DNA of 61,139 nt from an uncultured Gammaproteobacteria bacterium (GTDB lineage Bacteria; Patescibacteriota; Patescibacteriia; UBA9934), in the NCBI GenBank assembly GCA_964599455.1, contig CAZREA010000001.1:419829-480967 (forward strand), read 5' to 3'. The notes under the pieces are model-generated. The model was not told where the DNA came from. It did not search any database and was given only the letters and a program-made list of their open reading frames with translations. The translations under genes were made by a program, and so were the position numbers. The number at the start of each line of letters is the position of its first letter. Position 1 is the first letter of the stretch. Positions 53,339 through 57,956 of this stretch are shown here, in pieces.

Positions 53339-55360
53339 TTACGACACCATCAATGTGCGTGCTTGTAATTCTTCCTGGTAGGCCTCCAGTGTATCACCGA
53401 CTTCCATTTTGGTTTTCCCCAAAAAAGAGACACCGCACTCCTGACCTGCAAGCACATCTTTAACAGATGTTTTACCAACCTGGATTGCCTCGATCTTTCC
53501 TTCACCAATGATTTGTTCCTGACGCATGACACGAAGCGTAGCACCGGGAATGAATTTCCCCTTGCGCATTTTCACCCCAACAATAACGCCCTTGTCGGTC
53601 TTTTTAAAGAGAGCGAGCACCTCGCCCGTTCCAAGTTCGGAATACACCTTTTCGGACGGGAGAAGTTTCTTGAGGTGTTCAACAACACTTTCAAACAGTT
53701 TATAAATAATCGAATGTTCTTCGATGACAATATGTTTTTCTCGAGACAAGTCAGCAATACCCATGCCCGGCTTCACGTTAAAAGCCATGATGATGGCATT
53801 GGCAGCTTCGGCTCGTCCGATATCGGCGTCGGACACGTTACCCAAACCTCTGCCGACAACTTTCACTGCGACGTGCGGATTTTGAATCTTTTCAATCATG
53901 CCAAGCACTGCCTCAAGCGATCCCAACACGTCCGCTTTTACCAACAGATTTAATGTCGGCTTTTTCCCATCTTCTTCTTCATTTGAAGGCTTTTGTGCCA
54001 CCGAAGAAATCTCATCAACACCCGAACGCTTGGATGAAGACGTTTCTTTCAAATCTGACAATGATGCCAAGTCACGTGTGGCTTCAACAATATCACCAAC
54101 CGATGGCGCCGCTTTAAAACCGAGAATTTTCACTGGCGTTGAAGGAGGCGCTTCTTTAAGTGATGTGCCATCAAAAGCCTTCATCGCCCGAACGCGTCCG
54201 TAGTTAATACCACGCACACCAAGATAATCCTGTAAACGCAACGTTCCCGTTTGCACCACAATAGTGGCAAGCGGTCCTTCATTTTTATCGACACGCGATT
54301 CGATGATCGTTCCAATCGCTGCGCGATCGGGATTGGCAACGATATTTTCCTTCTCCATGTCAGCAACAAGCAACAAGACATCAAGAAGACCGTCAATATT
54401 CGTCAATTTCTTGGCTGAGATAGGAACACAAACGGTCTTTCCTCCCCAATCTTCCGGCACCAGCCCTAAATCCGACAACTGCGTCTTCACAAAATCCTGA
54501 TTGGCATCGGGTTTATCGATTTTGTTGATCGCAACCACAAAAGGAAGTTTTGCAGCTTTAATAATATCGATCGCTTCTTTGGTTTGCGGCTGCACACCAT
54601 CGTCGGCAGCGACAACTAAAATAGCAATGTCCGCAACCTTCGCACCACGCGAACGCATAACCGTAAAGGCTTCGTGACCCGGAGTGTCAATAAACGTCAG
54701 CGGTCGACCATTGCGTTCAACCTGATACGCACCAATGTGCTGGGTAATTCCACCCGCTTCGCCCGCGACGACGTTTGCTTTTCGCACGGCGTCGAGCAGC
54801 GACGTTTTCCCATGGTCAACGTGACCCATGACCACGATGACGGGCGGACGAGCCTCGGCATCACCGGACGCTTTTTCATTCTCTTTCACTTGTGCCAAAC
54901 GATTATCCGCTTCACCATCAACAGCTTCTTCTTTTTCTTCTTCAGCTTTTTGCGCAATAAAACCTAAATCTTCCGCAATAATTGCTGCAGAATCGTAATC
55001 GATTCGTTCGTTCAAAGACGCCAAAATACCACTACGCATCAATTCCTGCATGACCTTGGCAACCGGCAAATTAAGTAATGCCGCAAAATCACGCACCGTA
55101 ATCAGCGCAGGAATAGCAACCTGATCAGCAGAACCGGATTGCACGCGTGCCTTTCGTTCGGCACGAGCTTTTTGCTCCTCCATTTTCTTTTGCAAATACA
55201 AGCGCTTTTTGTATTCATTCCAGGCTTTGGAGATTTTACCGACATCACGATCAGGAATTTTGATGGCCTTTCCCCCAATATCAAAGCCAAGTTCCGGCAA
55301 GCGGGAACGCAATTCTTCAGTTGGCACCCGTAACTGACGGGCAAGTTCGGAAATATTCAT
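53339..55360 (-). CDS. infB: Translation initiation factor IF-2
   Basis: Start at ATG 55360 ([10 protein letters not shown]). G domain [21 protein letters not shown]. Confidence 0.95.
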
Positions 55361-55557
55361 GTGGGCAAGGATACTGGAGAGAGCCTGATTTGACAACCAA
55401 AGAAACCAATGGTGGCATATACCGGTTCCTTCACTCACCCTAACAGAACCTTTTCTCCACGGTGGAAGGAAGGTCATGCACAAGCCCATTTCTGCGGTAA
55501 GCGACACTGTGCATACGTTATCTTGAGTGAGGGCACCTTTTATGATTCAATAATCTT

Positions 55558-55997
55558 GCCTGTCTCAGGCAAGCGTTTCTGTATCCCCAAACGGCGAGGG
55601 GAGAGAAACGATGGACGCCAACGCGGCATCATCGAGGTCACCTGCGACCTTGCCGTGCCGCTTCAGCACTACGCCATCAACACAAGGGATCAACCACATG
55701 CTCTTCGTCACCTAGCCCCCGCGCCATAGGCGCGGGAACCCTGTAAGAGCCGCAAGGCTCCGGGGCAAAACGTGATGCCGCCGAGAACGGCAACAAGTAC
55801 GAGCCAAAGCTTGAACGCTAGGTTCGTGGTCGGGAACGCGTGTTCCGACTAAGCTCTGCCTTGACCAACGACACGCGTATCGTTGCCGTCACCTCTGTCT
55901 ACACCTCCTGTCCTACTCCATCCTCCATCCTGCTTCCAAAAAGAAAGGAGTCTTCGTTCGAACGCCCCGACCAAGTTGGGGCGTTTCCTTTTATTTT
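55558..55997 (+). ncRNA. Candidate structured noncoding unit ending in a strong terminator (GC-rich island, unit A)
   Basis: Nested helices: cctagc/gctagg, cccgcgcc-atag-gcgcggg, gagcc-gcaa-ggctc, cggcaac/gttgccg and gtcgggaa..ttccgac. Terminator aacgcccc-gaccaagt-tggggcgtt plus a U-run at 55961-97. Only a 34-codon ORF lies inside. The 5' end is a guess. Confidence 0.35.
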
Positions 55998-56435
55998 AAA
56001 GGAAATAACGTTGACACCAAGTTTAAAATCATGATTACATATGTACGTCCCCAAGCGTCCATTTGCGTGTCACCACGCTCTACGGACAGTGCACCCTACA
56101 GCATCCATGACTCGCAAGAGTTATCGTACAACGTGGTACGAAGGATGCATCATACAGGAAACGCACTCCAGCTTGGAACAAGGACCCTCCCGTTCCGAAG
56201 GTTTCGGAACTCCAACTCCTGCCTCCATCGAATTCTCCGAGGTGAACATGACGAAGACCCAGACGCTCTGACGTTTCATACCTGGACGGCGAGAACTCCC
56301 TCAAGCCGGGGCAAGGCCGGCTTCCCTACCAAATGAGTTCGGTAAGGCAAATTCGCGCCAAACCCGCACTCATTCACCCTCCGCCGCCGAGCCTGACCCT
56401 CGGTGGTACACCACCCCTTTCCTCTCGAGGACAAC

Positions 56436-56570
56436 ATGTTCGATCACCTGATCGGCTACGTCCCGAGCAGCGAGGACTTCCGTTCCTTGGCCCTGGAGCC
56501 CGCATTTCTCTCAGCGGCGAGAGCTCCGAACGGCCAGATGAAGATCCTCCTGGACGGGACCAACGTCTGA
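56436..56570 (+). CDS. Small ORF (44 aa) with strong SD and high GC3
   Basis: GAGGA 5 nt upstream of the ATG. About 80 percent G/C at third positions. A 14-bp hairpin at 56588-56625 lies downstream. MFDHLIGYVPSSEDFRSLALEPAFLSAARAPNGQMKILLDGTNV. Confidence 0.45.
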   Translation: MFDHLIGYVPSSEDFRSLALEPAFLSAARAPNGQMKILLDGTNV

Positions 56571-56797
56571 GGCGCCCTGCCTCGCTCACGCACTGTCATC
56601 GGGCTCGCCCTCGATGACAGTGCGTCAACTTTCTTACAGAAAAATATTCCGGCTAAAGGCCGTTTTTTGTTTGACCATTTCCCCTCTACCTGTTTTACTA
56701 TTCGCTCCTCGAAATCGAAACTCGATGAGAGGATCTTCCCGCTCTTAGTAGGCAATAGCTGAAAAGAGTTCACCTGACACGTGGGGATACTAAAGAA

Positions 56798-56962
56798 ATG
56801 GCCGAGATCACATTCGCAATCATCGGAGGAAGCGACGGCGATGTGGACCTCAACGAGGAAGAGACCGCCAAATTTCTGCCCGTTCCCGAGTCCGTCATCT
56901 GCGACCCTGAGACGGTGACGGCTGGACACTTCGAGGTGCAGAGCGTGGTGACGATCGGCTGA
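56798..56962 (+). CDS. Small ORF (54 aa), acidic, high GC3
   Basis: GGGGA upstream. Third positions are mostly G/C. Terminator at 56988-57030 (hairpin plus T8). MAEITFAIIGGSDGDVDLNEEETAKFLPVPESVICDPETVTAGHFEVQSVVTIG. Confidence 0.45.
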   Translation: MAEITFAIIGGSDGDVDLNEEETAKFLPVPESVICDPETVTAGHFEVQSVVTIG

Positions 56963-57158
56963 TCGGCCTCGCTCTCACCTCATCTGTCCCTCGCGCATCT
57001 TTTGATGTGCGGGGGACGTATCTTTTTTTTGAAAAAGGATGAAATGAAAAAGCATCTCCTGAAACAACAGAAAGTTTTACAAAAACGCTTAAATGGTTTA
57101 GCAAACATTTAAATAAACCGGTAGAGTAAAATACGGAATCATAACCATTGAAACACGT

Positions 57159-57956
57159 ATGTCATTTCTCTTGATTGATAAACCATCCGGCATAACGAGC
57201 CATGACGTTGTTGACGTTGTGAGAAAAATCACCGGTGAGCGCCGGGTTGGGCATGCAGGAACTTTAGATCCGTTTGCGTCGGGTTTACTTATTGTTGGCG
57301 TGGGACGAGAAAGCACCAAGTATCTCTCTCATTTTCTTGGTATGGATAAAGCCTATGAAGCCGATATCACGCTCGGGGTTACTACAGCAACACTAGATCC
57401 AGAGAGTCCAGAGGAGATTGTTCCAAAAGAAGGCGAGCAGATTGTCACAGAAGCAGAACTCAGACAAGCAATTCAAGAGCTAACCGGAACACTACAACAA
57501 ATCCCGCCGCAATACGCAGCTATCAAAATCCAAGGCAAAAAAATGTACGAACTCGCACGGGAGGGAAAAACGGTCGATGCGCCGCCGAGAGAAGTAACAG
57601 TGTATGAGTGGAGGGAAAAGTGGGATGGGGCACAAGAAGGCCAGGCGAGCCAGAAGGCCAGAGGATCAAAAAATCTGATGGCTGGCCTACTGGCCCAACT
57701 CTTCCCTCTCCCCGTCACCCTTTCCTTCCATATCCGCGTTTCTTCCGGTACCTACATTCGCGCCCTGGCTCGAGATCTTGGACAGAAATGTGGAACGGGT
57801 GGCTATTTACGCTATTTGCGTCGAACAGCGATTGGGCCGTATACCATTGAACACGCAGTTCCTCTCCATGACCTAACCCCGGAAAACTGGGCCAGTGTTT
57901 CAATTGACTTGGACCCCAACGGGTTGTATCCTAAAAACGCGCGAGAGATGCAATAA
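57159..57956 (+). CDS. truB: tRNA pseudouridine(55) synthase TruB carrying an in-frame palindromic insertion
   Basis: GHAGTLDPFASG catalytic Asp motif; SSGTYIRALARDLG. Confidence 0.93.
   Translation: MSFLLIDKPSGITSHDVVDVVRKITGERRVGHAGTLDPFASGLLIVGVGRESTKYLSHFLGMDKAYEADITLGVTTATLDPESPEEIVPKEGEQIVTEAELRQAIQELTGTLQQIPPQYAAIKIQGKKMYELAREGKTVDAPPREVTVYEWREKWDGAQEGQASQKARGSKNLMAGLLAQLFPLPVTLSFHIRVSSGTYIRALARDLGQKCGTGGYLRYLRRTAIGPYTIEHAVPLHDLTPENWASVSIDLDPNGLYPKNAREMQ
57608..57728. repeat. About 115-bp imperfect palindrome (MITE-like) inside truB
   Basis: Outer arms are ggagggaaaagtgggatgggg and ccccgtcaccctttccttcc. Inner arms are ggccagaggatc and gatggctggcc. Encodes roughly KWDGAQEGQASQKARGSKNLMAGLLAQLFPLPVT. 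Confidence 0.65.

Follow-up and report, generated by a model that had tools for sequence, protein, structure and literature searches.

What does an ultra-small bacterium keep between the genes infB and truB, when its closest relatives keep two promoter regions there and nothing else? The organism in question is an uncultured member of the Patescibacteriota that is found in wastewater (assembly GCA_964599455.1; 1.08 Mb in 13 contigs, mean GC 0.47), and the DNA analysed, referred to below as the window, is a stretch of 61,139 nucleotides (nt) within a contig of 481 kb. Between infB and truB, this genome has a spacer of three GC-rich cassettes, units A, B and C, each of which ends in a terminator-like hairpin. 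A first reading of unit A, made from the letters of the DNA (the sequence-only reading), had described it as a GC-rich, terminator-ended, highly structured and apparently noncoding transcript, and had proposed that it is either a novel structured RNA or a decayed foreign gene.

The reading that is favoured here, at slightly less than even confidence, is that unit A forms a transcription unit of its own, noncoding and separately terminated, with an RNA ~330–440 nt long, and that it is a young orphan in a lineage-variable accessory cassette, the first of the three in the spacer. This reading rests on the insertion context, the lack of a coding signal, the terminator, and the cover of the unit by contigs from RNA libraries. 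Roughly half of the weight of this reading is given to a selected function of the RNA. The earlier proposal is borne out in part: unit A is noncoding, looks foreign and is probably transcribed, but a selected structure is without support, and the unit is less exceptional than it first appeared.

Insertion context, signals and coding potential of unit A

The genes infB (minus strand) and truB (plus strand) flank unit A, as had been stated, and are divergent; this is clear both from their Pfam matches and from alignment with relatives. N-terminal alignment with three relatives places the true start of infB at the ATG at 55360. Within the genus (the loci compared include L058–L067 and L029–L033), TruB was detected in 17 of 19 genomes, and infB and truB are divergent neighbours, in the same way as in the host, in 14 of 15 extended loci. 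The length of the spacer between them varies widely, being 58, 70, 79, 764, 1413, 1859, 2154, 2256, 2322, 2378, 2592, 2975, 3582 and 5690 nt in 14 genomes of the genus. The three shortest belong to the closest relatives, G001 (70 nt), G007 (79 nt) and G011 (58 nt), which have the same divergent arrangement and whose spacers contain two promoter regions only. In more distant members of the genus, the infB strand of the spacer carries protein genes, among them fpg and a gene for a protein of 172 amino acids (aa).

No fpg homologue was found anywhere in the host genome (tblastn, E ≤ 1e-8), and the possibility that the host spacer consists of a decayed fpg and 172-aa gene was rejected: with 58 open reading frames (ORFs) from the relatives' spacers, the best match had an E of 8.7e-4 over 18 aa, at an AT-rich end. 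Nor did blastn of the relatives' spacers against the host spacer reveal any similarity at E ≤ 0.01. On these comparisons, the 1.8-kb spacer is best described as lineage-specific accessory DNA relative to the nearest sampled kin, at a site where gene content turns over. The foreign-looking location of unit A is upheld in the sense that the unit sits in lineage-variable DNA, and the DNA of unit A itself is, on the same grounds, judged to be accessory, either acquired or newly arisen in the lineage, and to lie outside the ancestral infB–truB region. As for mobile elements, the only repeats in the spacer are short and at chance level, namely an inverted pair of 13 nt (55571-83/57078-90) and a direct pair with 11 of 13 positions alike. 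Inspection by eye showed no duplication of its flanks, and family searches found no recombinase ORF in it.

The terminator that had been proposed for unit A is present, with its 12 pairs followed by the T-run CCTTTTATTT, and so is the C/U-rich stretch ahead of it (Table 1). The same kind of ending recurs in the spacer, in which three GC-rich bodies (GC ~0.61), all on the plus strand, each end in a long hairpin and a T-run, at 55960-55986 (12 pairs), 56588-56625 (16 pairs) and 56985-57018 (15 pairs). The region as a whole has 11 terminator-like sites, vs 2.7 (sd 1.7) in shuffles. Genome-wide there are 145 terminator-like hairpins of at least 9 pairs, and three on the same strand within 1.2 kb occur at two places only, one of them being the spacer, where the trio takes up 1.06 kb.

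The promoter is less clear. The candidate TTGAGT-17-TTCAAT of the sequence-only reading is there in the DNA, but it fails the promoter scan and is without an A at position 2 of its -10 hexamer; TATGAT at 55541-46 is a better -10 hexamer, with a weak -35, although the consensus used is of the sigma-70 type and may not be that of the host lineage. Transcription would start near 55553-55560, from a weak sigma-70-like promoter, and the plus strand would be the RNA strand, because of the orientation of the terminator and the stronger fold of the plus strand.

With regard to the RNA itself, 13 runs belonging to 6 studies are listed as containing the stretch, and the assembly may derive from two of these runs; four runs were compared, all as contigs. 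RNA-library contigs from two independent metatranscriptome studies, X5 and X9, cover most of unit A at 100% identity, with no differences, and X5 also covers 56084-56292 in unit B. The two other runs, guessed to be DNA, match the spacer at 100% identity in scattered places, and one of the matching pieces bridges the start of infB (55338-55488). The infB and truB flanks and 55927-56083 are without RNA-library contigs, and such lack of cover was not used as evidence. Unit A is probably transcribed, as had been claimed, but contigs can show presence only, and not strand, ends or level.

The description of unit A as apparently noncoding was supported. In a codon model trained on GC-rich genes of the host genome, true frames have a mean score of 13.9 (sd 12.4) and off-frames a mean of -7.9, whereas the maximum for unit A in any frame is 5.9, and no frame reaches coding-like scores. 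It had been stated that only a 34-codon ORF fits inside; there is indeed no long ORF, but plus-strand ORFs of 64 aa (55840-56034) and 38 aa (55883-55999) are also present, as are several of 31-48 aa on the minus strand. When 10 ORFs and the six read-through frames were compared with protein families (Pfam, PHROGs, NCBIfam, PADLOC), nothing reached a curated cut-off, and tblastn of the six frames of unit A against 7.3 Gb of plasmids gave one match only, with an E of 0.8. A search of 5.8 billion proteins gave no candidate for the 106-aa ORF; protein searches with the unit B frame and with P0001 were likewise without candidates, and the ESM Atlas returned unnamed clusters only. A pseudogenised protein gene, the outcome that had been set against an RNA gene, did not come to light among the six frames in either the family or the plasmid searches. 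The low codon scores and the lack of family and tblastn matches argue against a recognisable or recent pseudogene, and an old, fully decayed gene may fit. The idea that the spacer stands out as free of ORFs was rejected: long ORFs arise spuriously in GC-rich DNA, so that coverage by ORFs of at least 90 aa has no diagnostic value.

Table 1. Positions (window coordinates) of unit A, its predicted parts and the neighbouring features
Feature	Position	Strand	Details
infB (IF-2)	53339..55360	-	673 aa; Pfam IF-2, GTP_EFTU, IF2_N
infB–truB spacer	55361..57158		1798 nt; three plus-strand cassettes (units A, B, C)
Promoter-like site of infB, TTGTCA-17-TATCCT	55368..55396	-	Promoter scan; similar element in the same position in the relatives' short spacers
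Promoter candidate of the sequence-only reading, TTGAGT-17-TTCAAT	55523..55551	+	Present in sequence; not listed by promoter scan
Predicted 5' hairpin of unit A, 8 pairs	55555..55573	+	Pair probability 0.99
Predicted hairpin pairing Shine-Dalgarno-like GGGGAGAG upstream of 34-codon ORF	55575..55609	+	55575-80/55604-09, p 0.98; 55584-88/55598-602, p 0.93
RNA-library cover of unit A	55601..55926		Strand not given by contigs; X5 record 6: 55601-55926; X9 records 11 and 12: 55605-55766 and 55758-55926
34-codon ORF	55611..55715	+	Codon-model score -15.7; no family match
Predicted domain 1	55623..55781	+	10-bp closing helix 55623-32/55772-81 (p 0.69); CCCGCGCC and GAGCC-GCAA hairpins (p 1.0)
Predicted domain 2	55783..55895	+	Closed by ACGGCAAC/GUUGCCGU; two hairpins inside; p 0.84-0.88
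C/U-rich tract	55887..55940	+	Mostly unpaired in predicted fold; CCUCC motifs; from sequence and fold
Tandem repeat CTCCATC x2.3	55916-55931		7-nt unit; Tandem Repeats Finder
Intrinsic terminator of unit A	55960..55997	+	12 pairs, 7 of them G-C; tail CCTTTTATTT; pair probability 0.96
Unit B	56013..56662	+	TTGACA-containing upstream region; ~390-nt structured leader; terminators 56588-56625 and 56650-56662
44-codon ORF of unit B	56436-56570	+	GC at third codon positions (GC3) 0.82; codon-model score of ORF window 12.9
Unit C ORF (P0002)	56798..56962	+	Strongly acidic 54-aa orphan protein; codon-model score 18-22; GC3 0.69, GC at second positions (GC2) 0.39
Intrinsic terminator of unit C	56985..57018	+	15 pairs and T-run
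truB	57159..57956	+	Pfam TruB_N, TruB_C_2; start ATG 57159

Objections to a noncoding RNA, and the rival explanations

Several findings weigh against unit A as a noncoding RNA, and they concern its transcription, its homologues and its fold. Its promoter is weak and was missed by the promoter scan. DNA can occur in RNA libraries, and contigs are silent on the properties by which a transcript would be defined. Furthermore, the three contigs that reach the 3' side of unit A all end at 55925/6, and one of them comes from a run guessed to be DNA. Because the guessed-DNA contig also stops there, at the only tandem repeat in the spacer, the common stop is probably a break of the assembly graph at the CTCCATC repeat and not the end of an RNA. 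Pairing of unit A with units B and C was rejected: the longest complementary runs are at chance, being reached in 50/150 and 84/150 shuffles, respectively.

The second group of objections is that unit A appears to stand alone. A search with the DNA of unit A and the spacer found it in 0/40 relatives and in 0/400 genomes across the phylum. A covariance model of the folded body, R1 (55718-55895, 178 positions, 56 pairs), gave five weak matches over 149 relatives (best E 0.002 per genome), none of them a convincing homologue; they were rejected because all lie inside GC-rich ORFs of 500-939 aa. Two pattern scans of metagenome contigs and three of viral contigs yielded nothing convincing, and because no homologue was found, covariation support for the helices of unit A is absent. 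Thus, the homologues that had been hoped for from metagenomes did not appear, none being convincing in metagenome contigs, in ~550 related genomes or in other collections. With 1.6 kb of spacer DNA as the query, the host's own genome returned the spacer itself only, and phage and plasmid collections returned nothing; 53 tblastn queries with translated spacer frames against the own genome gave a best E of 6e-4 over 22 aa, which was judged to be noise. A literature search limited to titles and the openings of abstracts turned up no noncoding RNAs of Patescibacteria and no infB–truB element.

The third group concerns the fold, which was the basis of the original proposal. All five complementary pairs that had been named are present in the DNA, CCTAGC/GCTAGG at 55711-16 and 55817-22, one base off the positions first given. 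Three of the five are kept in the minimum free energy (MFE) fold, i.e., CCCGCGCC/GGCGCGGG (55718-25/55729-36, p 1.0), GAGCC/GGCUC (55747-51/55756-60, p 1.0) and ACGGCAAC/GUUGCCGU (55787-94/55882-89, p 0.88), but CCTAGC/GCTAGG and gtcgggaa/ttccgac are displaced by alternative pairings. Against shuffles, the predicted fold of unit A is stable: 55552-55997 folds with -165.7 kcal/mol (z -4.41; 0/100 shuffles equally stable), and, in a separate shuffle run, 55558-55997 has a z of -3.69 vs -2.23 for its reverse complement. The region covered by RNA-library contigs, 55601-55926, has a z of -2.78 and -3.28 in two runs, and its complement -1.80 vs -3.28; the tmRNA and the RNase P RNA of the host genome show a strand asymmetry in the same direction.

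However, when 20 random 326-nt windows within GC-rich coding ORFs of the host genome were taken as controls, they had a mean z of -1.92 (sd 1.73, range +1.46 to -7.03), and 4 of the 20 were at or below the -2.78 of unit A. The ensemble diversity per nt is likewise 0.194 for unit A vs 0.199 (sd 0.080) for 40 coding windows, and both the tmRNA (z -4.2) and the RNase P RNA (z -8.0) of the host are more convincing than unit A. In these folding models, unit A is intermediate between coding DNA and genuine structured RNAs; helices alone do not establish an evolved structure. The claim of an evolved, conserved structured RNA is not supported: the fold statistics are within the range of GC-rich coding DNA from the same genome and no homologue was found. 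For the present, the more useful outcome is a caution: in a genome with many GC-rich accessory segments, nested helices and a strongly negative z against shuffles do not separate an RNA gene from GC-rich coding or junk DNA, and controls from the same genome are needed.

These controls also bear on the main rival, according to which a GC-rich coding cassette, acquired horizontally, has decayed into unit A and is still transcribed from leftover signals, its helices being incidental. This is possible, though less likely than the favoured reading. The poor separation of unit A from GC-rich coding DNA of the same genome speaks for it, as do the setting, in which ~10% of the long ORFs are GC-rich accessory genes, many with long hairpin terminators, and the two neighbours, units B and C, which are laid out like unit A and have small ORFs with coding-like codon use. 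There is also a weak GC periodicity at 55560-55800, which the minus-strand frames fit slightly better than the plus-strand frames. On the other hand, the codon scores described above are coding-like in no frame, the six read-through frames are unmatched in Pfam, NCBIfam, PADLOC and the plasmid tblastn, pattern scans of metagenome, genome and viral collections gave no protein match that held up, and unit A is not a remnant of the fpg or 172-aa gene of distant genus members. The sole match from a pattern scan of the genomes of 185,579 species, at one Saccharothrix locus (35/45 nt), was rejected: it spans the last 9 codons and the downstream part of an XRE-cupin gene, with the rest of the protein unmatched, and is near chance for a collection of this size. 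The period-3 pattern in this match was imposed by the search method.

An explanation with a small probability is that unit A is an mRNA, with the 34-residue peptide as its product and a long structured 3' untranslated region (UTR) after the ORF. There is a good Shine-Dalgarno-like GGGGAGAG 5 nt ahead of the ATG, the RNA-library contigs start at 55601 and 55605, just upstream of it, and units B and C appear to encode small proteins. But the codon score of the frame is ~2.4 sd below the true-frame mean, GGGGAGAG is sequestered in a predicted hairpin of high probability, no family or homologue of the peptide appeared in the searches, and a 3' UTR of 245 nt after 34 codons would be unusual for so compact a genome. 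The 34-codon ORF is probably not translated into a selected protein.

It is very improbable that unit A belongs to a conserved, undescribed class of structured RNAs, such as a ribozyme, a riboswitch-like element or a large noncoding RNA. What makes this thinkable is that the unit is multi-helical, with a GNRA-capped hairpin and a z of -3.7 to -4.4 vs shuffles, and that neither 6S RNA nor SRP RNA (small and large models) had a match in the assembly, the spacer included. However, the syntenic site in the three closest relatives is without the element, no sequence or covariance-model homologue occurs in ~550 genomes of the phylum, and a housekeeping RNA would not be limited to one species. The earlier failure to match unit A to known RNA families by eye agrees with the search of 54800-57600 with Rfam 15 (4227 models), in which the 5 matches with E ≤ 10 were all far under their gathering scores; the best of them, at the terminator but on the minus strand, had an E of 0.34 and reached 27.4 bits, where the gathering score is 90. 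In the whole window, 5 tRNAs were the only matches at gathering scores. Unit A further differs from housekeeping RNAs (RNase P RNA, tmRNA, 6S, SRP) in being absent from relatives, and RNase P RNA and tmRNA are encoded elsewhere in the genome, at C4:44503-45000 (a match of 498 nt vs a model of 367 positions) and at C10:2216-2630 (by the Rfam model; missed by ARAGORN), respectively.

Lastly, that the spacer is an assembly chimera, in which foreign GC-rich reads were joined into the contig, is scarcely credible. The genome is metagenome-derived and heterogeneous in GC, and independent contigs leave the truB junction and the junction of units A and B unbridged. Against a chimera, synteny with relatives holds on both sides of the spacer, which lies in the interior of its 481-kb contig. 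In an independent run, one contig reaches across the start of infB into the spacer, and independent runs of other studies have parts of all three units at 100% identity. Moreover, >50 similar GC-rich segments are embedded in contigs across the genome.

Units B and C, and GC-rich segments in the genome

Unit B (56045-56640) folds more convincingly than unit A, with a z of -5.59, and its 390-nt leader without the terminator has a z of -4.18. Its coding-like periodicity begins upstream of the start of its own ORF. The product of unit C, P0002, is a singleton in both of the collections searched, one of 5.8 billion proteins and one of 1.84 billion cluster representatives. Although the three units have a common layout, they are not recognisable as diverged copies of one another, a possibility that was rejected since their local alignments were matched by 26, 16 and 23 of 200 shuffles. 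A perfect complementarity of 13 nt joins the leader of unit B (56069-56081) with the 3' end of the unit C ORF (56940-56952) and is reached by 2/150 dinucleotide shuffles; this could be an RNA–RNA interaction or chance. The second same-strand cluster of three terminators in the genome (G000 C1:291612-292868) has its terminators ~630 nt apart, each after an ORF of 155-180 aa.

Unit A is richer in GC than its flank (0.61 at 55600-55899 vs 0.43-0.50 in infB), and in this respect the sequence-only reading was right. But such a composition is not unusual genome-wide, 5% of 300-nt windows being >0.58. Among ORFs of at least 250 aa, 53 of 533 have a GC of at least 0.55, and their GC3 is 0.73 vs 0.43 in the remainder. 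Ten sampled GC-rich ORFs include NAMPT, MopE-type metal-binding repeat proteins, an M23 peptidase and orphan proteins. Across the genome, GC-rich long ORFs are scattered as single genes, often with their own long hairpin terminators; within the window, the terminator layout of the spacer was not seen at any other GC-rich ORFs, and the idea that they have it was rejected. The composition of these genes suggests an extensive acquisition of foreign or fast-evolving accessory genes by the host genome.

Some further observations concern the surroundings of unit A. The -10 hexamer of the infB promoter, TATCCT, ends 7 nt ahead of the ATG, and the 58-79-nt spacers of the relatives are laid out alike; this spacing suggests that the infB mRNA may be leaderless or nearly so. 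Downstream of infB are thioredoxin and thioredoxin reductase genes, and downstream of truB is RNase Y. The 16S rRNA was not found in the assembly. Finally, short contigs of ~85x cover in runs X3 and X7, from different habitats, share 30/34 nt with 55608-55641 and diverge on both sides of it. Plasmid blastn of 55596-55655 gave chance-level matches only (E 0.4-4), and, given the length of the query, the similarity has probably arisen by chance, with a sequence that is abundant but unrelated.

Known systems and a possible role for unit A

Trans-acting small RNAs (sRNAs) of the RsaE/RoxS type have an intrinsic terminator and unpaired C-rich motifs that pair with ribosome-binding sites. Like these, unit A stands alone between genes and has a stem-loop body, an unpaired C/U tract with CCUCC and a Rho-independent terminator; unlike them, it is three to four times longer, is not conserved and has no Rfam match to these families. 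The large structured noncoding RNAs OLE, GOLLD, ROOL, HEARO and raiA came from comparative genomics and are defined by covariation across many genomes. Unit A resembles them in its length of several hundred nt, its many GC-rich helices and its intergenic position, but differs in being without a homologue in the searches and without an Rfam match. It is also like the GC-rich single-gene cassettes of the host, units B and C included, in having a GC of ~0.6 in a genome of 0.47, its own long hairpin terminator and a lineage-specific distribution; unlike those cassettes (NAMPT, MopE-type, M23 peptidase, orphans), it has no ORF with a clear codon bias.

Horizontally transferred islands have been described in Patescibacteria, and those treated in the available part of the source concern protein-coding exchange (PMC12455944). 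Unit A is like these islands in being accessory DNA of atypical composition in an ultra-small genome, and would differ from those in that part of the source in being a noncoding transcript. The TIGR guide-RNA arrays are, in the part of their description available, tandem interspaced repeat arrays (PMC12045711); no array of this type is present in the spacer, since the sole tandem repeat that Tandem Repeats Finder reported in 55361-57158 is the CTCCATC repeat.

If unit A is a noncoding RNA with a function, this would most likely be base pairing in trans with purine-rich ribosome-binding regions. By analogy with the sRNAs mentioned above, the pairing element would be the C/U-rich tract (CACCUCCU, CCUCC), predicted to be largely unpaired, that separates the folded body from the terminator, and the GC-rich helices would mainly stabilise the RNA. 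A more specific proposal, which is held to be improbable, is that unit A gives a stable RNA of ~326 nt (55601-55926) that accumulates in wastewater, i.e., a recently born or acquired regulatory RNA, the CACCUCCU/CCUCC tract of which would bind ribosome-binding sites in an anti-Shine-Dalgarno-like manner, and that it is possibly part of a three-cassette module with the orphan proteins of units B and C. The ends of 55601-55926 pair with each other in the predicted fold (GAG/CUC and GAUGGA/UCCAUC).

The infB–truB spacer, with its lengths of 58–5690 nt, comes out as a hot spot of change in gene content in the genus. Should unit A prove to be a functional RNA, an ultra-small, uncultured bacterium would have provided a rare case of a regulatory RNA specific to one lineage, and noncoding accessory DNA would be kept there despite a strong reduction in genome size.

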